Assembly: GCA_964493475.1 (NCBI GenBank) | Contig: CAZBNS010000002.1 | Location: forward strand, 1-43,954 | DNA length: 43,954 bases | Direction: 5' to 3' | Source: an uncultured Rhizobiaceae bacterium | Lineage (GTDB): Bacteria; Pseudomonadota; Alphaproteobacteria; Rickettsiales; UBA1997 | Shown: positions 94-29,163 of the stretch, piece after piece | Position numbering within the stretch: the first letter of the stretch is position 1 | How the letters are laid out: each line of letters opens with the position of its first letter | Translations under genes and position numbers: made by a program | The notes under the pieces: generated by a model | Told to the model about the DNA's origin: nothing | What the model saw: the letters and a program-made list of their open reading frames with translations, nothing else | Databases searched by the model: none

Positions 94-122
94 TTGACAA
101 ATAAAACCAAATAATTAACAAT
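94..122 (+). promoter_or_regulatory. Sigma70-like promoter of cassette copy 1 (TTGACA-N17-AACAAT)
   Basis: TTGACA lies at 94-99, followed by a 17-nt spacer and AACAAT at 117-122. The same hexamers and spacing occur in the two other cassette copies. Confidence 0.55.
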
Positions 123-126
123 TTGA

Positions 127-327
127 TTGCCTACGGGCAAAGTGATGGCTTAAAACACCAAAACCCAATTTTAATTTAGTTCGCAGGTCTTTGTTGTATC
201 TAACGATATAGCGGAGGCTTGCGGTTATAATGAATTATGTTTCATAATTCAAAAGGCTGTAAGGGCTGATTGGGTCAGTTGTTTTAACCTCCGCACTTTT
301 CAAATTATTTGAAGTGCGATTTTTATT
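127..327 (+). ncRNA. Conserved structured leader/ncRNA, copy 1 (unknown family)
   Basis: Helices read from the sequence: 5' hairpin ttgcc-UACG-ggcaa (127-140); hairpin tatc/gata (197-208); P1 gcggagg (211-217)/cctccgc (288-294); P2 cttgcgg (218-224)/ctgtaag (257-263) capped by gaattatg/cataattc (232-250); hairpin gctga/tcagt (265-279). Stems are supported by compensatory changes in copies 2 and 3. Confidence 0.7.
292..327 (+). terminator. Intrinsic terminator at the end of RNA copy 1
   Basis: Stem cgcactt (292-298)/aagtgcg (312-318) is followed by atttttatt. The 5' arm shares nt 292-294 with the P1 3' strand. Confidence 0.65.
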
Positions 328-347
328 AATTAAAAAAGAGGTAAAAT

Positions 348-671
348 ATGATGACTGATAAACTAAGAGAATTAAATAATCTTTTAAATCAGAAAATAGA
401 TGATAGTAAGAATAAGAATAATTCTTATAATAATAATCTCAAAGACGAAATAAATAACATTGAAAGAGAAATACTAGACAAGAAACTATTTCAATTAGAA
501 AGAAAAGCTTTCCAATATATAGTAAATAATAACTTTAATGCAAAACGAGATATAAGAACATTGAGAAGATTATTAAGATATATAGAAAGAACTCACGAAG
601 GAAAAAGAACTAATGAGTGTATGATTGAAAGAGTAGAGAATCTATTGGAAAGTGTGATAAAGAAAGATTAA
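348..671 (+). CDS. Small K/N/E/R-rich, probably helical protein of unknown function (cassette cargo 1)
   Basis: The ORF is 107 aa, with GAGGT (338-342) upstream of ATG 348/351. Its C-terminal segment QYIVNNN..RDIRTLRRLLRYIERT resembles RYYIDNK..GDVIGLRNLLNYIIKT of cargo 2. Confidence 0.6.
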   Translation: MMTDKLRELNNLLNQKIDDSKNKNNSYNNNLKDEINNIEREILDKKLFQLERKAFQYIVNNNFNAKRDIRTLRRLLRYIERTHEGKRTNECMIERVENLLESVIKKD

Positions 672-7907: not shown

Positions 7908-8028
7908 CTTTAAATTGAACTTAATATAAGTAAAACATTAAAAAATATATTTTCAAGATATTTTATTAAATTGGATTGTTAATATGTTATGGTTTTTTAT
8001 TTTAGCTAAATAGTTCAACAACCAAGGA

Positions 8029-8078
8029 CAATCTTTCCACTCCTTGAGGGTCAATATCTGAAGGACAAAGGGGAGCTA
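8029..8078. repeat. Family-1 repeat copy
   Basis: The sequence is caatctttccactccttgagggtcaatatctgaaggacaaaggggagcta. Confidence 0.7.
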
Positions 8079-9903: not shown

Positions 9904-10443
9904 ATGAATATATTAAAAAATCCAATATTAAATTTAAAAACAGACGCTTCAACCTTAGCTGTCGACTTAGCAATTACTAAGAATTTTCTTAAAGTTGATT
10001 TTGGCGATGACGACGAATTAATTATAAAAATGATTAAAACAGCCGCCAGCCAATGCGAAACCCATATTGGCAAAACATTAGTTGAAAAAACTTATGTTTA
10101 TTCTTTGTATGAATTAAAAAGTAGCTCAATTATTCTTCCTTATTCTCCAATAAAATCAATTAATGAAATAAAGAACAGTGATTTAAATAATATAAGTGCG
10201 ATAATACCATCATTTGATTATATTTTAGACAATATTGGCGGAATATTAAACTTTATAAAAAAACCAGAAAATTTTTACAGACTTGACATAGAATATACAG
10301 CAGGTTTAACAACAATTAATGATGAATTAATTCAAGCACTGCTAATGCACATATCAAGAATGTATGAAGACAGAAGCGGCTATTCGCCAATTCCTACAAA
10401 TTCTTTAAATATTTACAAAAAATATAGACAAATTAAATTATAA
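9904..10443 (+). CDS. Phage/GTA head-tail connector protein (gp6-like)
   Basis: The N-terminus L..LK..L.VD..DDDELI..MI.TA...CE..IGK.L resembles gp6-type head-tail connectors (RcGTA g6-like position). Confidence 0.7.
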   Translation: MNILKNPILNLKTDASTLAVDLAITKNFLKVDFGDDDELIIKMIKTAASQCETHIGKTLVEKTYVYSLYELKSSSIILPYSPIKSINEIKNSDLNNISAIIPSFDYILDNIGGILNFIKKPENFYRLDIEYTAGLTTINDELIQALLMHISRMYEDRSGYSPIPTNSLNIYKKYRQIKL

Positions 10444-10444
10444 T

Positions 10445-10774
10445 ATGACAGAAAAAAAATTAGTTGATAGATTAAACAAAAGAATAAAAATACAAGCAAA
10501 AACCAACAACAACGATGGTTTTGGCGGCTATTTGGAAACATGGAGTGATTCAAAAATTTTGTGGGCAGAAATTAGACCTGTTTCAAATCTTGATAGTTTT
10601 AGAGGAAAAAGAATTGAAGAAAAAATCACCCATATAATAACAATAAGACATTATGCCCCACTCACAACACAGCATAGAATAAAATACAAAAACAGAATAT
10701 TTGGTATTGTAGGCATTATAAATACGCTTGAAAACAATCAAACTATGGAAATTAGAGCAGAGGAAATATTGTAA
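10445..10774 (+). CDS. Phage/GTA head-tail adaptor (head-closure, SPP1 gp16-like)
   Basis: LNKRIKIQ......DGFGG..ETWSD....WAEIRP.S is typical of head-tail joining proteins. The gene starts 1 nt after the connector gene. Confidence 0.7.
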   Translation: MTEKKLVDRLNKRIKIQAKTNNNDGFGGYLETWSDSKILWAEIRPVSNLDSFRGKRIEEKITHIITIRHYAPLTTQHRIKYKNRIFGIVGIINTLENNQTMEIRAEEIL

Positions 10775-10817: not shown

Positions 10818-10958
10818 AATCTTTCCCTCTGCCCTCACCACCACACTAATCTTTCCCCTCTGCCTTCACCACTACACTAATCTTTCCCCTCCGCCTTCGC
10901 CACTACACTAATCTTTCCCCTCCTTGAGGGGAAATGTCCGAAGGACAAAGGGGAGCTA
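10818..10958. repeat. Tandem array of the family-1 5' half (three units of 30-31 nt) fused to one complete family-1 unit
   Basis: Units aatctttccc(c)tc(t/c)gcc(c/t)t(c)(a/g)cca(c)c(a/t)acact lie at 10818-10847, 10848-10878 and 10879-10909. A full element follows at 10910-10958. Confidence 0.8.
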
Positions 10959-11017: not shown

Positions 11018-11299
11018 TTACTTAATCCTATTAATAACCTTACTTAACCTTTCAAACTTCTTTTCTTCATCATATTTAACTCTACAAGTTTTAATTATAT
11101 AATTAAGTAAGTTTCTTAAACCTATTACATCTCCTCTTACTATTATTTTATTATCAATGTAGTATCTTAATATTTCTTTTATTGGTTCTATTAAGTCTTC
11201 ATTAATTGAGTTATTAATTTTGATTTTCTTTTCGAAATCTTTTTCTTTTTGTAGAAGATATAATTTTTTGAATAAATCGTTTTTCATCAGTTCGTCCAT
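11018..11299 (-). CDS. Small helical protein of unknown function (cassette cargo 2)
   Basis: The ORF track starts at 11311. That ATG overlaps the GAGGT that aligns with the SD of copies 1 and 3, so ATG 11299 (MDELMKND..., 93 aa) is the likelier start. It is a paralog of cargo 1 by C-terminal similarity. Confidence 0.6.
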   Translation of the reverse strand: MDELMKNDLFKKLYLLQKEKDFEKKIKINNSINEDLIEPIKEILRYYIDNKIIVRGDVIGLRNLLNYIIKTCRVKYDEEKKFERLSKVINRIK

Positions 11300-11320
11300 T
11301 TTAGACCTCATTTTTTAATT

Positions 11321-11352
11321 AATAAAAATCGCACCATTCTAAGAAAAGTGCG
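11321..11352 (-). terminator. Intrinsic terminator at the end of RNA copy 2
   Basis: On the minus strand, stem cgcac (11352-11348)/gtgcg (11334-11330) is followed by atttttatt. Confidence 0.6.
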
Positions 11353-11514
11353 GAGGTTAAACTAACTGACACTATCAGCTCTCACAGCCTTTTAGACTAT
11401 AAATAGCCTATTATAACCGCAAGCCTCCGCTATATCGTTAGATACAACAAAAGCCTGCAGACTAAATTAAATAGTGTTTCGGTAGTTTACACCGTCAACT
11501 TTGCCCGTAGGCAA
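11321..11514 (-). ncRNA. Conserved structured leader/ncRNA, copy 2
   Basis: The reverse complement aligns with 127-327, and a 41-nt run equals 191-231 exactly. It has the same ttgcc-UACG-ggcaa 5' hairpin (11501-11514). The P2 apical hairpin changes to taggcta/tagtcta (11393-11410). Confidence 0.7.
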
Positions 11515-11518
11515 TTCA

Positions 11519-11547
11519 ATTATTAATTGTTTTAATTAAGATGTCAA
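11519..11547 (-). promoter_or_regulatory. Sigma70-like promoter of cassette copy 2 (TTGACA-N17-AATAAT)
   Basis: On the minus strand, TTGACA is at 11547-11542, followed by a 17-nt spacer and AATAAT at 11524-11519. The -35 element abuts the gatA stop codon. Confidence 0.55.
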
Positions 11548-15547: not shown

Positions 15548-15589
15548 TTATAGCTCCCATTTCGTGTTGCGACAAAGGGGAGCTATAAA
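15548..15589. repeat. Family-1-related perfect 10-bp inverted repeat
   Basis: tatagctccc (15550-15559) pairs with gggagctata (15578-15587), separated by an 18-nt spacer atttcgtgttgcgacaaag. Confidence 0.7.
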
Positions 15590-16026: not shown

Positions 16027-16066
16027 TTTATAGCTCCCCTTTGCCTTTCAGATATTTCTCCTTTCT
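16027..16066. repeat. Family-1 repeat, inverted orientation, degenerate
   Basis: tttatagctcccctttgcctttcagatatttctcctttc is the reverse complement of the ..gaaatgtctgaaggacaaaggggagcta core. Confidence 0.6.
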
Positions 16067-21196: not shown

Positions 21197-21225
21197 TTGA
21201 CAATTAATTTCAAATATTTAACAAT
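21197..21225 (+). promoter_or_regulatory. Sigma70-like promoter of cassette copy 3 (TTGACA-N17-AACAAT)
   Basis: TTGACA lies at 21197-21202, followed by a 17-nt spacer and AACAAT at 21220-21225. Confidence 0.55.
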
Positions 21226-21230
21226 GAATT

Positions 21231-21428
21231 TGTCTTAAGAAGACCTTAAGACATTGTTGATGGTTTAAAACACCAAAAAGCGATTAGATGATGTCGTAAG
21301 TCTTTGTTATGCAAAGCATAGCGGAGGCTTACGGTTATAATGAGTTGCATTTGCAGCTTAAAAGGCTGTAAGAGCTGATCGCTTCAGTTGTTTTAACCTC
21401 CGCACTTTTATCAGTGCGATTTTTATTA
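21231..21428 (+). ncRNA. Conserved structured leader/ncRNA, copy 3 (most diverged)
   Basis: The 5' hairpin is replaced by tgtcttaag/cttaagaca (21231-21253). Hairpin tatgc/gcata lies at 21308-21320. P1 is gcggagg (21321-21327)/cctccgc (21397-21403). P2 is cttacgg/ctgtaag, with apical hairpin agttgc/gcagct (21343-21358). Confidence 0.7.
21401..21428 (+). terminator. Intrinsic terminator at the end of RNA copy 3
   Basis: Stem cgcact (21401-21406)/agtgcg (21413-21418) is followed by atttttatta. It overlaps the P1 3' strand by 3 nt. Confidence 0.6.
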
Positions 21429-21450
21429 ATTAGAATAAAAGAGGTTTGAA

Positions 21451-21882
21451 ATGATAGAAGATGAATTATATAATCCCGGTGAAGAAGAATTTAAAGTTGA
21501 TAAAACACTAAATAAAAAAAGCATAAAAGAAGAGATGAAAATTAGCAGAATGTTAATTAACATAAATGAAATTCAAAATTTAATAGATTGTTTTGAATTA
21601 AATAATCATTTTTCAAATGATTATAACTATAAGGAAATATTAAATACAAATAATTGCCATTATTTAGAAAATCTTTTTAAAGCAAAAATATTAGAATTAA
21701 ATATAATAATCATAAAAAACTATTTGGAAGTTAATAAATTTAATTTCAATTTTGATAAGCTAAAAAAATCAAGAAAAATAATGGACAAGCTGTTGAAAGT
21801 CTACAGTTGCTCGCAAGAAAAGGCTGTAAAAAAAATTAAAGAACTGATTGCTTGGAGTGGTATTGAGGAAAGGGAAGTTTGA
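21451..21882 (+). CDS. Small K/N/E-rich protein of unknown function (cassette cargo 3)
   Basis: This 143-aa ORF has AGAGGT 7 nt upstream of its ATG. It shows only faint similarity to cargos 1 and 2 (NYLEVNKFN...KIMDKLLKVY). Confidence 0.55.
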   Translation: MIEDELYNPGEEEFKVDKTLNKKSIKEEMKISRMLININEIQNLIDCFELNNHFSNDYNYKEILNTNNCHYLENLFKAKILELNIIIIKNYLEVNKFNFNFDKLKKSRKIMDKLLKVYSCSQEKAVKKIKELIAWSGIEEREV

Positions 21883-21932: not shown

Positions 21933-21961
21933 TTGACAATAATTAAATAATAAGCGATTAT
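21933..21961 (+). promoter_or_regulatory. Candidate promoter for virB10 (TTGACA-N17-GATTAT)
   Basis: TTGACA lies at 21933-21938 and GATTAT at 21956-21961. This is a weak call in AT-rich DNA. Confidence 0.3.
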
Positions 21962-21987: not shown

Positions 21988-23493
21988 ATGCAGCAAAATC
22001 AGATAACCAATACTAATACTCAAGAAGATATTGCCGAAACTGATGAAGATACGATTGGCGTTGGCAGCTCGAAACAAAGTAAAATGATTTTAATCGTTTT
22101 TATAGTTGTATTTGTTTCCACTGTTATATATTTTCTTTTCTTGAAAGAGCCGGCTGATACTACTGTGGGACCAAGCACTGATGAAATAGTTATTCAAAAA
22201 GGCGGACAGCCAACTAGAGGGGTTAGCATTGATTATAATATTTCAGATTTGTTGGATGTGGCTCCAACTGATGATAGATTTTTAACTCCTCAAACACAAG
22301 ATACAGTTCCAGCTTTACCGGAATTGCCGTCATTGCCGGAAGAAATAAGGCAACAGATTGCTAGTGGAGAAAAGAAAGATGAAAAAACATTCACTAAAGA
22401 AGAAGTTGATAAAATGATTAGCGATAGGTTAAAAGAGGCTATGGAGCAACAAATGGAAGCTATAACAAAGCTTAGTGCGCAACAACAGCCTAGAGATGAA
22501 GTAAGAACTGCAGCACCTGCGGGTATTGTGATAACTCCTCCTAGACAACAACAGCCTGTGAGAGCTGGAGATCCAACATCTATAAGTCTTCCTGGAGATG
22601 CTACGGCTGGACTTGATACTGCGAACATGACAGACGAAGAAATTTTAACTGCGCAGCAAAAAAAAGAAGCTGAGGCATTAGAGAAAATTAAAAAAGATAA
22701 AATTTTACAAGAAAGAAAAGTTGCGCCTATGTTTAAAGTGAGTTCTGGAACAGGACCTGCTAAAAGTAGTCTTGACACTTCTGATTTTATTATACTATCT
22801 TATACTGACAACAAACTTGACATTCAAAATAAAACGCCTGATGTTATACCGACACAAGTTACGGACTTAACGAGAGTGATATTGCAGGGAAAAGTTATAA
22901 GCGCAGTTCTTGAAACGGCTATAGATACTGATATAGCTTCAACAGTAAGAGCAGTAATTACAAGAGACATATATGCTGAAGAAGGCAAAAACATTCTAAT
23001 ACCAAAAGGCTCAAGAGTTATTGGAAATTATGAAACTAATATAACATCAGGACAAACAAGAGTTACAATTAATTGGAATAGAATTATAAGAGTTGATGGA
23101 ATGAGCTTAAATATAGCTTCTATTGGCGCAGATAGGCTTGGAAGAGCTGGTGTTGCGGGTGATTTAGATAATAGATATGCTCAACGTTTGGCAAATTCAT
23201 TCTTATCAAGTGTTTTAAGTGTTGGTACCTCCTTAGCTGTTGAAAAAGTTAGCGGTTCTACTGGAATTACAAATACAATAAGCTCTTTAACTGGAGAATC
23301 TACTACAACAAGTGGAAAAGCGTCAGATTATGCTTTAATACAAGCTACAAAAGATTTTATGAGTGATGCCCAAGATATAGTAGACGATATAGCCGAACAA
23401 AAACCTGTAATTAGAATTCCGCAGGGTGAAAAAGTAATGATTATGGTTACTCAAGATTTAACCCTTCCAGTATATAAAAGGAGTAATAGATAA
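21988..23493 (+). CDS. virB10: Type IV secretion system protein VirB10
   Basis: It has an N-terminal TM helix, a P/Q-rich linker and a C-terminal TrbI/VirB10 barrel region (VISAVLETAIDTD....V.A.ITRDIY...GK.ILIPKGSRVIG.Y). Confidence 0.9.
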   Translation: MQQNQITNTNTQEDIAETDEDTIGVGSSKQSKMILIVFIVVFVSTVIYFLFLKEPADTTVGPSTDEIVIQKGGQPTRGVSIDYNISDLLDVAPTDDRFLTPQTQDTVPALPELPSLPEEIRQQIASGEKKDEKTFTKEEVDKMISDRLKEAMEQQMEAITKLSAQQQPRDEVRTAAPAGIVITPPRQQQPVRAGDPTSISLPGDATAGLDTANMTDEEILTAQQKKEAEALEKIKKDKILQERKVAPMFKVSSGTGPAKSSLDTSDFIILSYTDNKLDIQNKTPDVIPTQVTDLTRVILQGKVISAVLETAIDTDIASTVRAVITRDIYAEEGKNILIPKGSRVIGNYETNITSGQTRVTINWNRIIRVDGMSLNIASIGADRLGRAGVAGDLDNRYAQRLANSFLSSVLSVGTSLAVEKVSGSTGITNTISSLTGESTTTSGKASDYALIQATKDFMSDAQDIVDDIAEQKPVIRIPQGEKVMIMVTQDLTLPVYKRSNR

Positions 23494-24485
23494 TGCATAA
23501 TTTTGAAGCTCTTGAAGTCTATTTAAAACCTATAAATTACATTTTACAACAGGAAGGAATAACTGAAATATCAATTAATAAGGCCAATGAAGCTTGGGTA
23601 GAAAAAAAAGGCGACATGTTTAAAGTTGAAATGCCCGGATATGATTTAAAACATTTAAAATCATTAGGAAGACTAATCGCACAGGCTACGGATCAGAAAA
23701 TAAGTGAAGAAACCCCATTGCTATCAGCAACATTGCCTTCTGGATATAGAATTCAGGTTGTTTTTCCACCAGCATGTGAAAATGACACAGTAATCATGTC
23801 TATCAGAAAAAAGAGTGATATAGTATGGTCGCTTGATGATTATGAAAAAATGGGAGCATTTTCAACAACTTCTGTTGGTGCGGTTAAAGATGACTCAAAC
23901 GTTATTTTATCTAAGCTTTTAAAAGCAAATATGATAAAAGAATTTTTATACAAAGCAATTTTAAGCAAAAAAAACTTAATTATTTCCGGTGGTACTTCAA
24001 CAGGTAAAACCACTTTTACTAACGCCTGTCTAAAAGCAATTCCAAGAGTTGAAAGACTAATAACCGTTGAAGACGCCAGAGAAATAGATTTAGGTTGGCT
24101 TCCAAATAAGGTTCACCTATTAGCTTCAAAAGGCGGACAAGGAAGAGCAAATGTAACGGCTCAAGATTTAATTGAAGCTTGCTTGAGGTTAAGACCTGAT
24201 AGAATAATAGTGGGAGAGTTGAGAGGAAAAGAAGCTTTTTCATTCTTAAGAGCGATAAACACAGGACACCCTGGTTCTATTTCCACACTTCACGCTGACA
24301 CTCCTAAAATGGCTTTACAACAGCTAAAGTTAATGGTTATGCAGGCTGGATTAGGTATGCCTCCCGATGATATATTTAATTATATTAATAATGTTATTGA
24401 TATAGTAGTTCAGTTAAAAAGAGGCGCAAAAGGAGTTAGATATATATCTGAGGTTTATTTTAGAGATTTTAATCAGAATATATAG
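23493..24485 (+). CDS. virB11: Type IV secretion system ATPase VirB11
   Basis: Walker A GGTSTGKTT, ITVEDAREI, GELRG and the His box TGHPGSISTLHA are present. A TAATG overlap couples it to virB10. Confidence 0.93.
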   Translation: MHNFEALEVYLKPINYILQQEGITEISINKANEAWVEKKGDMFKVEMPGYDLKHLKSLGRLIAQATDQKISEETPLLSATLPSGYRIQVVFPPACENDTVIMSIRKKSDIVWSLDDYEKMGAFSTTSVGAVKDDSNVILSKLLKANMIKEFLYKAILSKKNLIISGGTSTGKTTFTNACLKAIPRVERLITVEDAREIDLGWLPNKVHLLASKGGQGRANVTAQDLIEACLRLRPDRIIVGELRGKEAFSFLRAINTGHPGSISTLHADTPKMALQQLKLMVMQAGLGMPPDDIFNYINNVIDIVVQLKRGAKGVRYISEVYFRDFNQNI

Positions 24486-27963: not shown

Positions 27964-29163
27964 CTAAGCGCTGGCTCCGCATTTTAAAAGCTTAAATGCT
28001 TCTTTTCTAATTACATCACCACCCACTCTTTTTGTGGTGTAAAATCTAACATAAGGTTTTGAAGTATATGGATCTCTCAAAATTCTTATATCGGTTCTAT
28101 CAACTATTTGATAAAATTTAAAATTACCAAAAACTACGGAAAAGCTGGAAGCTGCTAACCCTGGCATAAAGGCGCTTTGATAAACAGGGCAACCCATCAA
28201 AGTGTCTTCTTTGCCGCCTAACAATGCTGGCTGCCATAAATATGCACCGCTTGTTGAGTCCTTTAACATTCTGATTGCGCCTACTGCGGCTCTTGGCATT
28301 ATAAAACAAGCACCGTTAACATATTGTTCTTTTAGGCCATAATATAAATCTATTATGTCTTTTGCGTCTATGCCGCCATCGGTGGTATTATCGGATTCAA
28401 CAATGGTAATAGATGAATCTGCATAAGTTGTAATTCCTCGTGGCTGATTATATGTGTCGCCAGTTCCAACTAAAAAAGCCTCTTCTTCTGCTTGTGCAAA
28501 TTTTGACGCTAACTGCTGTGCCAACCAGTCTTCTATGTCAATAGAAGCGTCATCAAGTAATTTTTGTGTCACTTGCGGCTGTGCAACCAACTCATGAACT
28601 TTAATTGTTGCTTTAGTCAAAACAGAGGAATTTGTAGTATTAACTGTTCCAATTTCTGAATTCCAAGAAGCATCAAAACTGCTGTCGTCAATAACATCAA
28701 GTGCTGATGAAGAAATGTTTTGAACGGAGCAAATTTTTCTCATAAAACTTGTGCTGTTAACTTCATTGGTAATAATTCTTTGCATGCTAGGACTAACCAA
28801 ATAGCCACCGTAAGTTCCACTTAAGGCGGTTGTTAAATCAGCTTTTTGCTCCAAAGCAAGCAGAGGTGCGTCAACTCCTTTTGTCAAATAATTTCTTAGG
28901 GCTTTTTTATACTCGGAATTTTCATAACAATAATTTGAACTCTTGCTTTCAAGATTTGGTCTAGACATACTAATTTCAATCTTTTCCATTTTTTCATTTT
29001 GCTCATTGAGGAAATTATTTATTTTTTCTAACTCTTCTTTGACTAAGCAATCAGCCGAACCTTTCTTTTCAAGCTGTCTTAATCTTTCATCATTAACTTG
29101 TTTAAAATGCTCCCAAGCATTTCCAATTTGTTCAAGTTTATCATTTACTTCTTCTAAACTCAT
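27964..29163 (-). CDS. Phage/GTA major capsid protein, HK97 family
   Basis: It has an N-terminal coiled-coil delta-like segment (LEQIGNAWEHFKQVNDERLRQLEKKG) and an HK97-fold C-terminal region ending ..RVGGDV...EAFKLLK. Size is 399 aa. Confidence 0.88.
   Translation of the reverse strand: MSLEEVNDKLEQIGNAWEHFKQVNDERLRQLEKKGSADCLVKEELEKINNFLNEQNEKMEKIEISMSRPNLESKSSNYCYENSEYKKALRNYLTKGVDAPLLALEQKADLTTALSGTYGGYLVSPSMQRIITNEVNSTSFMRKICSVQNISSSALDVIDDSSFDASWNSEIGTVNTTNSSVLTKATIKVHELVAQPQVTQKLLDDASIDIEDWLAQQLASKFAQAEEEAFLVGTGDTYNQPRGITTYADSSITIVESDNTTDGGIDAKDIIDLYYGLKEQYVNGACFIMPRAAVGAIRMLKDSTSGAYLWQPALLGGKEDTLMGCPVYQSAFMPGLAASSFSVVFGNFKFYQIVDRTDIRILRDPYTSKPYVRFYTTKRVGGDVIRKEAFKLLKCGASA

Follow-up and report, generated by a model that had tools for sequence, protein, structure and literature searches.

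A multicopy ~200-nt structured RNA with two mutually exclusive folds upstream of orphan small proteins in uncultured Rickettsiales: a candidate transcription attenuator

What does an RNA do that is better conserved than the proteins it precedes? The question is raised by three cassettes within a 43,954-nt stretch of an uncultured Rickettsiales genome (contig CAZBNS010000002.1 of assembly GCA_964493475.1; in the following, the window). From 5' to 3', each cassette consists of a promoter-like site TTGACA-17-AAYAAT, a 5' hairpin, a ~200-nt structured RNA, an intrinsic terminator, a Shine-Dalgarno sequence (SD) and a small open reading frame (ORF). An earlier sequence-only reading had offered three hypotheses for the RNA, i.e., a cis-regulatory leader, a stable small RNA (sRNA) with a read-through cargo gene, or a duplicating RNA-plus-cargo module. 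We find that the cis-regulatory leader fits best, given that there is no room for a promoter of the ORF's own and that helix P1 overlaps the terminator, while the other two may hold alongside. More specifically, we propose a riboswitch-like leader working as a three-hairpin transcription attenuator, with hairpin Hb as anti-antiterminator and helices P1 and P2 as antiterminator, followed by the terminator. We give this proposal about an even chance of being correct.

The order promoter-RNA-terminator-SD-ORF is real, and the three copies lie where they had been placed before, i.e., at 94-347 (plus strand), 11547-11312 (minus strand) and 21197-21450 (plus strand). Scanning the window with a 17-base core pattern and up to three mismatches returns exactly these three sites, compared to 0.15 expected by chance. 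The promoter hexamers had also been read correctly, with TTGACA-17-AACAAT at 94-122, TTGACA-17-AATAAT at 11547-11519 and TTGACA-17-AACAAT at 21197-21225. In copy 1 an A-rich block lies 5' of the site, whose position is kept in all three window copies; related loci carry either a TTGACA-type site or the variant TTGCAA-17-TATAAC. The 41-nt run at 191-231 is indeed identical in copy 2, and all helices described for copy 1 were recovered, from the 5'-terminal hairpin (127-140) through the terminator (292-327), as were GAGGT (338-342) and the start codon (ATG 348). Copy 1 continues with this SD (GAGGU in the RNA) into an ORF of family A (348-671, 107 aa). Copy 2 (11018-11547, minus strand) begins directly 3' of the gatA stop codon, its RNA spans about 11518-11324 and its family-B ORF 11299-11018 (93 aa). 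For copy 3 (21197-21882, plus strand), the RNA lies at about 21226-21424 and a family-C ORF at 21451-21882 (143 aa).

The predicted fold of copy 1 is much more stable than those of 200 shuffled sequences (z = -7.1), none of which reaches its stability. Applying a covariance model built in this analysis (R1) to the window and 13 loci yields 19 full-length copies, plus one in locus L014 that is aberrant in its 5' part and one truncated by the end of a contig (L008:1-80). The 19 copies include two decaying ones that the sequence pattern had missed (L005:597-745, L015:533-670). Analyses on 17 copies below refer to the pattern-selected set, those on 19 copies to the alignment fitted by R1. The structure claimed by the sequence-only reading is real and covarying, but it was incomplete: the dominant predicted fold with a long hairpin and long-range helices had been missed, i.e., also the two covarying long-range helices, LR1 and LR2, that tie the 5' domain to the 3' domain. 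For the composite of LR1, LR2, Hb, P2 and P3 on 19 copies, 94.8% of the cells are paired, with 23 doubly changed pairs and 129 such cells. None of 500 shuffles reaches these values, and sliding the partners by 1-3 columns gives 38-49% pairing.

Since the 19-copy alignment leans towards its own model, we added an alignment-free duplex test. The 5' strand of LR1, UUAAAACA (150-157), is the loop of hairpin Ha (146-160; 3-bp stem 146-148/158-160, 9-nt loop) and pairs with UGUUUUAA at 280-287, which directly adjoins the 3' strand of P1. Four of its eight pairs are doubly changed, and in copy L010b a matched compensatory 1-nt deletion is found on both strands. When the Ha loop is duplexed against the stretch 5' of CCUCC, no other partner beats the cognate one in 15/17 copies (permutation p<5e-5). 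The closing pair of the Ha stem covaries as well, being C-G (8), U-A (7) or G-C (3), and the second pair changes once from G-C to A-U. LR2, the 'barcode' helix, pairs ACCCAAUU (163-170) with 268-275 and is different from copy to copy; six of eight pairs are doubly changed, with up to five pair types per column. Here, the test set the 14 nt 3' of Ha against the P4-loop segments of all copies, and the cognate partner is best in 16/17 copies (mean duplex energy -5.2 vs -0.3 kcal/mol, permutation p<5e-5). Only L009b, an apparently chimeric copy at the end of a contig, departs from this. That is, the sequences of LR1 and LR2 differ in nearly every copy while their complementarity is kept.

The second overlooked feature is Hb, a 20-bp, G.U-rich hairpin at 181-224. 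The tatc/gata hairpin noted earlier at 197-208 is present but represents only its tip, and Hb as a whole competes with P1 and P2. Its 3' strand AUAGCGGAGGCUUGCGG contains GCGGAGG (211-217), the 5' strand of P1, as well as CUUGCGG, the 5' strand of P2, i.e., both are sequestered once Hb is formed. The folding energy of Hb on its own is -22 to -28 kcal/mol for long-type and -10 to -14 kcal/mol for short-type copies. Its upkeep is visible in a covarying tip, in pair 184:221 (C-G 6, U-A 5, U.G 1) and in the invariant GGAGG, which is faced by U or C only.

In the alternative fold, GCGGAGG pairs with CCUCCGC (288-294) to form P1. Both strands are perfectly complementary and invariant save one G.U in a decaying copy; the 3' strand is invariant throughout the 17 copies. 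P2 (218-226/255-263) follows; above it lie the internal loop AUAAU/AAAA (227-231/251-254), which is invariant, and the cap P3 (232-250), which varies. Together they cover 218-263. All 171 cells of P2 (9 pairs x 19 copies) are paired with three pairs doubly changed, and for P3 all six pairs are doubly changed. Hairpin P4 (GGCUGA/UCAGUU, 264-280), the loop of which is the 3' strand of LR2 (268-275), is paired in 98% of the cells and shows one-sided G-to-A changes only. P4 and the full LR2 at once are sterically implausible, as zero-length connecting loops would be needed. Both mutually exclusive folds, i.e., Hb on the one side and P1 with P2 on the other, are kept by evolution.

Energy-based predictions reproduce this duality. 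RNAalifold on the 17 copies returns the P1-P2-P3-P4 fold, while the single-sequence minimum free energy structure combines Hb, LR1, LR2 and the terminator in 16/17 copies; the chimeric L009b comes without LR1 and LR2. For the isolated core, the two folds are -4.7 to +5.9 kcal/mol apart in all 17 copies, and raising the temperature from 25 to 42 C barely alters the gap. The competition reaches into the terminator (292-327), which has an invariant base CGCAC.../...GUGCG, a variable loop and a U-run; in copy 3 it is called by a terminator scan at 21401-21418. As read from the sequence, the last three bases of the P1 3' strand (288-294), CGC, are shared with the terminator stem (292-298) and form its base. 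An invariant chain runs through pyrimidine tract / GCGGAGG / CCUCCGCAC / GUGCG; variation is free in the terminator loop, in P3 and in the LR helices. Exactly such an invariant chain beside freely varying parts is expected for overlapping alternative pairings.

These energies also bear on an RNA thermometer, in which the G.U-rich Hb would melt with temperature and free GCGGAGG. Temperature is a classic cue for host-associated bacteria, and Hb pairs GGAGG with a U/C tract via many G.U pairs, which is reminiscent of fourU and ROSE elements. However, the gap between the core folds hardly responds within 25-42 C, the long-type Hb is as stable as given above, and the GGAGG within Hb is not the SD of the ORF, such that we consider a thermometer very unlikely. 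The 1:2 / 2:3 / 3:4 logic of the hairpins likewise resembles trp-type attenuators and thus ribosome-mediated attenuation via a leader peptide. Here, the 17 copies share no leader ORF starting with ATG, neither by position nor by sequence, which makes this explanation scarcely credible.

How would such an attenuator work? Each cassette would form one transcription unit, the ~200-nt 5' part of which acts as a bistable attenuator with three competing hairpins. By default, Hb would form first during synthesis and lock GCGGAGG, in long-type copies also the 5' strand of P2. LR1 and LR2, which differ between copies, would then clamp the 5' domain and the 3' domain together, the terminator would form, and a compact, stable ~200-nt RNA would be released. 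If a putative trigger prevents or opens Hb, GCGGAGG-CUUGCGGUU could pair with CCUCCGC and GGCUGUAAG, such that P1 and P2 form around the invariant AUAAU/AAAA loop and P3. P1 would thereby remove the CGC base of the terminator stem, and the polymerase would continue into the small ORF. The data show the helices, that they exclude each other, and that P1 overlaps the terminator; in which order the RNA folds, which way it switches and that it has a trigger at all are what we infer in this scheme. Candidate triggers are a small ligand or a protein at the invariant junction or internal-loop nucleotides, or a factor that recognizes the Hb pyrimidine tract. The unpaired junction nucleotides UUAUAAU, ARAA and RAA are (near-)invariant while the stems vary, which is the usual signature of a binding pocket. 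The downstream protein is unlikely as trigger because the leader is common to unrelated ORF families, i.e., the common element is the RNA.

The heptamer TTATAAT at 225-231, with equivalents in the other copies, deserves a separate remark. It is invariant in the 17 pattern-selected copies, but the metagenome search pattern itself required TTATAAT; one decaying copy found by the model has TCATAAT in its place. It contains a perfect -10 hexamer inside an RNA gene and might cause sigma-dependent pausing rather than initiation. We rejected an internal promoter at this site, as there is neither a -35 nor a TG and its transcripts would meet the terminator anyway.

The arrangement around the terminator links the RNA to its ORF. 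From the U-run to the start codon there are only ~20-30 nt and hence no room for a promoter between terminator and ORF, such that the ORF should be expressed only via read-through from the promoter of the RNA. The SD is found at a fixed distance, and the downstream ORF is retained in most copies. As in riboswitches, we find a covariation-supported structured domain within a 5' leader upstream of an SD and ORF without intervening promoter, together with an expression platform in which a helix competes against the terminator (shared CGC, near-isoenergetic folds, P1 itself without covariation).

Several observations weigh against the attenuator. P1 (gcggagg/cctccgc, 211-217/288-294) is present as described earlier, but it lacks covariation support because it never varies. 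Such support is also lacking for P4, the gctga/tcagt hairpin (265-279) of the sequence-only reading, which exists but competes with the strongly covarying LR2. Nested folding of the RNA together with its 5' domain puts the terminator fold ahead by 2-17 kcal/mol. The associated orphan genes point to no ligand, protein or condition and give no metabolic clue. All copies stem from only a few uncultured genomes, which are close relatives and in which gene conversion is evident, for which reason the counts of paired cells overstate the number of independent events. Finally, some RNA copies with an intact structure have no ORF (L006) or are followed in tandem by a second copy (L008/L009, L014), which hints at an RNA with a function of its own.

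The latter copies speak for a stable sRNA gene that acts in trans or with a protein partner, where constitutive leaky read-through fixes the RNA:protein ratio as in type III toxin-antitoxin loci. Here, the single-stranded CCUCC by the terminator could serve as an anti-SD seed. A strong promoter of its own, a protective 5' hairpin, the terminator and a predicted default fold of -57 to -76 kcal/mol fit such a gene, as does its multicopy nature, which is known from sibling sRNA families such as the alphaproteobacterial 'cuckoo'/CcsR RNAs that are linked to small ORFs. On the other hand, an sRNA leaves the upkeep of P2, the overlap of P1 and terminator, and the near-isoenergetic folds unexplained. 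Furthermore, most copies retain the ORF with its SD in place, no target can be named, the RNA is without tandem repeats and the proteins match no toxin or defence family. We therefore regard this explanation as possible, if rather unlikely. With regard to type III toxin-antitoxin systems proper, TRF finds no repeat array inside 123-330, 11324-11518 and 21226-21424, and a ToxN/AbiQ-type endoribonuclease toxin was rejected given no match in Pfam, PADLOC, PHROG or NCBIfam and an all-helical predicted fold.

The 5' hairpin just mentioned, H0 (UUGCC-UACG-GGCAA, 127-140), is kept among the loci while its sequence varies; copy 3 has a different hairpin in this position (21231-21253). The tandem arrangement is seen in the overlapping contig ends L008 1-331 and L009 5551-5759, which join to RNA-RNA-ORF with a promoter and terminator for each RNA. 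In L014 (112-328, minus strand), the perfect palindrome CTGCAGGAAGGGGTTTGCAACCCCTTCCTGCAG replaces the 5' domain and Hb, P1-P4 and the terminator are intact, and another cassette promoter directly follows this RNA copy.

That the RNA is more conserved than the protein it precedes holds true, i.e., the same leader is found across unrelated ORF families (A/B vs C). Family A comprises window copy 1 and seven loci or proteins, family B window copy 2 and four others, and family C window copy 3, L015 and L004. The ORF lengths of 107, 93 and 143 aa had been given correctly; from an upstream ATG, the copy 2 ORF has 97 aa. The description of the three ORFs as barely alignable is right for copy 3, which is not detectably related to copy 1 or 2, but weak homology (28% over 54 aa) links those of copies 1 and 2. 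A profile comparison with hhalign places the homology of families A and B in the C-terminal 60 residues (85% probability, E 7e-6). The ORFs are real genes with orthologues in other metagenome-assembled genomes (MAGs), under purifying selection at a ratio of nonsynonymous to synonymous substitution rates (dN/dS) of 0.19-0.48, with dS saturated; for the ORF of copy 1 versus its orthologues, the ratio is 0.19-0.29.

Relatives of these proteins are rare. For family A, 5.8 billion clusters contain 8, and a set of 1.84 billion yields 2 representative clusters, while the search with the family C protein returned only itself. Sequence searches of the ORF proteins against Pfam, PHROGs, PADLOC, NCBIfam and PDB gave no significant match. 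An AlphaFold model of a cargo protein, of low confidence (pLDDT 67), is all-helical with four helices, and Foldseek found no fold match for it. The products are orphan proteins of ~100-140 aa, predicted to be all-helical.

Could the cassette be conserved for its own sake? A selfish module of promoter, RNA and ORF that duplicates and recombines, with an RNA conserved by gene conversion or for its own spread, would account for copies in non-syntenic positions among housekeeping genes. Flanking genes are non-syntenic between loci except for the site 3' of gatA, and even this site differs: in the window it holds an intact long-type RNA with a B ORF, in L015 a decayed short-type RNA without ORF, followed by a C cassette. 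Recent duplicates within one MAG are near-identical from the LR1 3' strand through the ORF and differ in LR2, the Hb tip and P3; such mosaic duplicates indicate gene conversion and mosaicism. The two decaying copies (L005:597-745, L015:533-670) and the repeats often found at cassette edges, resembling repetitive extragenic palindromic (REP) elements, fit as well. However, genes for a transposase, integrase or reverse transcriptase are absent, no terminal repeats or target duplications recur consistently, the REP-like elements vary in orientation at the edges, and phages, plasmids and viral contigs give no match. In addition, ~60 positions are invariant across species whose ORFs are saturated at synonymous sites, for which purifying selection on the RNA itself is needed. 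We consider the selfish module improbable as the explanation of the RNA; it is compatible with, not exclusive of, an attenuator.

The repeats themselves can be summarized as follows. A dispersed ~50-nt palindromic REP-like element, CTAATCTTTCCCCTCCTTGAGGGGAAATGTCCGAAGGACAAAGGGGAGCTA, is found in the window at 1-55, 752-802, 8028-8078, 10908-10958, 15571-15585 and 16028-16062. Its core GACAAAGGGGAGCTA lies within 60 nt of cassette edges for window copies 1 and 2 as well as in L004, L006, L009, L010, L011 and L015; its orientation there varies, and not every copy has one nearby. Just downstream of cassette 2, a 31-nt tandem repeat (AATCTTTCCCCTCTGCCTTCACCACTACACT, 3.4 copies, 93% matches, 10818-10922) abuts a REP-like copy. 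L015 shows C-rich degenerate repeats (CCCCTGTCAAGAC...) and an inverted counterpart at 740-1110, between its decayed RNA copy and the intact cassette. Finally, the contig of a near-identical strain breaks inside the RNA; since many contigs of these MAGs do so, the RNA is an assembly-breaking repeat.

Does the RNA belong to a known family? Screening the whole window with Rfam 15 at gathering threshold yields only 5 tRNAs, which agrees with the earlier statement that no known RNA family is matched. Permissive Rfam scans of copy 1 and one short-type copy give best matches of 18-29 bits vs thresholds of 42-59. Among them, GcvB (RF00022) scores 18.4 and 26.5 bits, below its gathering threshold of 42. 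The GcvB and trpB motif (RF04312) alignments both rest on a generic hairpin plus terminator. GcvB shares a length of ~200 nt, the 5' hairpin, a U/G-containing middle and the terminator, but its single-stranded G/U-rich seed R1 aligns here with the covarying helices P2 and P3. Moreover, GcvB belongs to Gammaproteobacteria, where it is present in single copy beside gcvA.

Type III toxin-antitoxin systems (ToxIN and relatives) show the same order of promoter, structured RNA, intrinsic terminator and ORF, with read-through setting the protein output; they differ in the tandem repeats, absent here, and in that the proteins here are small, predicted to be all-helical and without match to a toxin or defence family. 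The cuckoo/CcsR RNAs are similar in that several paralogous structured RNAs per genome occur in changing contexts near small protein genes and carry a CCUCC element. The RNA studied here, in contrast, lies upstream of the ORF behind a terminator, is much larger, shows two-state covariation and has no Rfam match to those families.

The closest likeness is to three-hairpin attenuators and terminator-type riboswitch leaders, i.e., PyrR-controlled pyr, T-box and orphan candidates, which have the same exclusive anti-antiterminator, antiterminator and terminator helices in a 5' leader, conserved junction nucleotides, variable peripheral stems and tandem arrangements. Unlike T-box and pyr leaders, the RNA shows neither T-box/specifier features nor the PyrR binding-loop consensus, and no Rfam model matches. 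It also has two extra copy-specific long-range helices, is multicopy with its own promoter each time, and precedes orphan small proteins instead of metabolic genes. The best cis-regulatory sub-threshold match in Rfam is the trpB motif, a riboswitch candidate of Firmicutes and Fusobacteria (PMC11109978). It shares a hairpin followed by an intrinsic terminator, with the antiterminator in the P1 shoulder (PMC11109978). Its score of 29.4 bits is half of the gathering threshold of 59, its conserved nucleotides, i.e., mostly the conserved P1 letters, are unmatched, and phyla and associated genes are others. Rickettsia, Rickettsiales and Wolbachia go unmentioned in the main text of the Breaker-lab surveys of 26 and 50 genomes. 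With no counterpart in Rfam or the literature searched, the ~200-nt RNA is a new family, while its regulatory kind, a structured leader that controls a terminator, is already known. Its unusual traits are that both folds are selected, the copy-specific clamp helices, a promoter of its own at every copy, and the orphan cargo.

Three further candidates were tried and rejected. A retron is not supported, as no reverse transcriptase is found among the cassette-flanking window ORFs scanned against Pfam and the downstream ORFs are 93-143-aa helical (predicted) orphans behind a terminator. Group II intron pairing of exon- and intron-binding sites (EBS/IBS) does not apply, given nested helices, no domain V and only ~200 nt of RNA. 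A mimic of the 16S 3' end was discarded because the resemblance of UGCGGUU is not conserved among copies.

The known distribution is narrow. Of 185,579 species genomes scanned with an exact pattern, two MAGs alone contain the RNA core, each titled 'Rickettsiales bacterium', and a metagenome scan adds four further contigs with the core from two metagenomes; viral contigs, phage records and plasmids showed no match. A range of two MAG species and two metagenomes limits the generality of the finding. In Rickettsiales and other reduced host-associated bacteria, few regulators and very few riboswitches are known. A leader conserved more deeply than its proteins, present in many copies per genome and with both folds kept, is a tractable candidate for a new class of regulatory RNA. 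It could reveal a signal sensed by these uncultured bacteria and the role of the orphan small proteins, while the copy-specific helices may show insulation between paralogous switch RNAs or how gene conversion shapes RNA families.

A bolder version of the attenuator, which we consider doubtful, is an addressable bistable riboregulator. Here, a sensing core made of P1-P2, the AUAAU/AAAA loop and the P3 junction would be held shut by the two copy-unique 'barcode' clamps. If so, paralogues within one cell could be opened independently, e.g., by a copy-specific trans RNA, or each tuned to its own threshold for a shared input such as a ligand or host signal. This would provide graded control of fast-evolving, possibly effector-like small proteins in an obligate intracellular bacterium with few regulators.

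Finally, the genomic setting is as follows. The window has ~30% G+C and carries the housekeeping genes recA, acpS, gatCA, lpxD, dapB, rpsO-pnp and a tRNA cluster. Phage- or gene-transfer-agent-like head genes, i.e., for a gp6-like connector, a head completion protein and a major capsid protein, occur singly among them (9904-10774 and 27964-29163), which suggests dispersed remnants of a gene-transfer agent or prophage. A virB10 (TrbI)-virB11 pair occupies 21988-24485, between cassette 3 and rpsO-pnp. It has a promoter-like site to itself (21933-21961) and appears to be one piece of a type IV secretion system that has been split.

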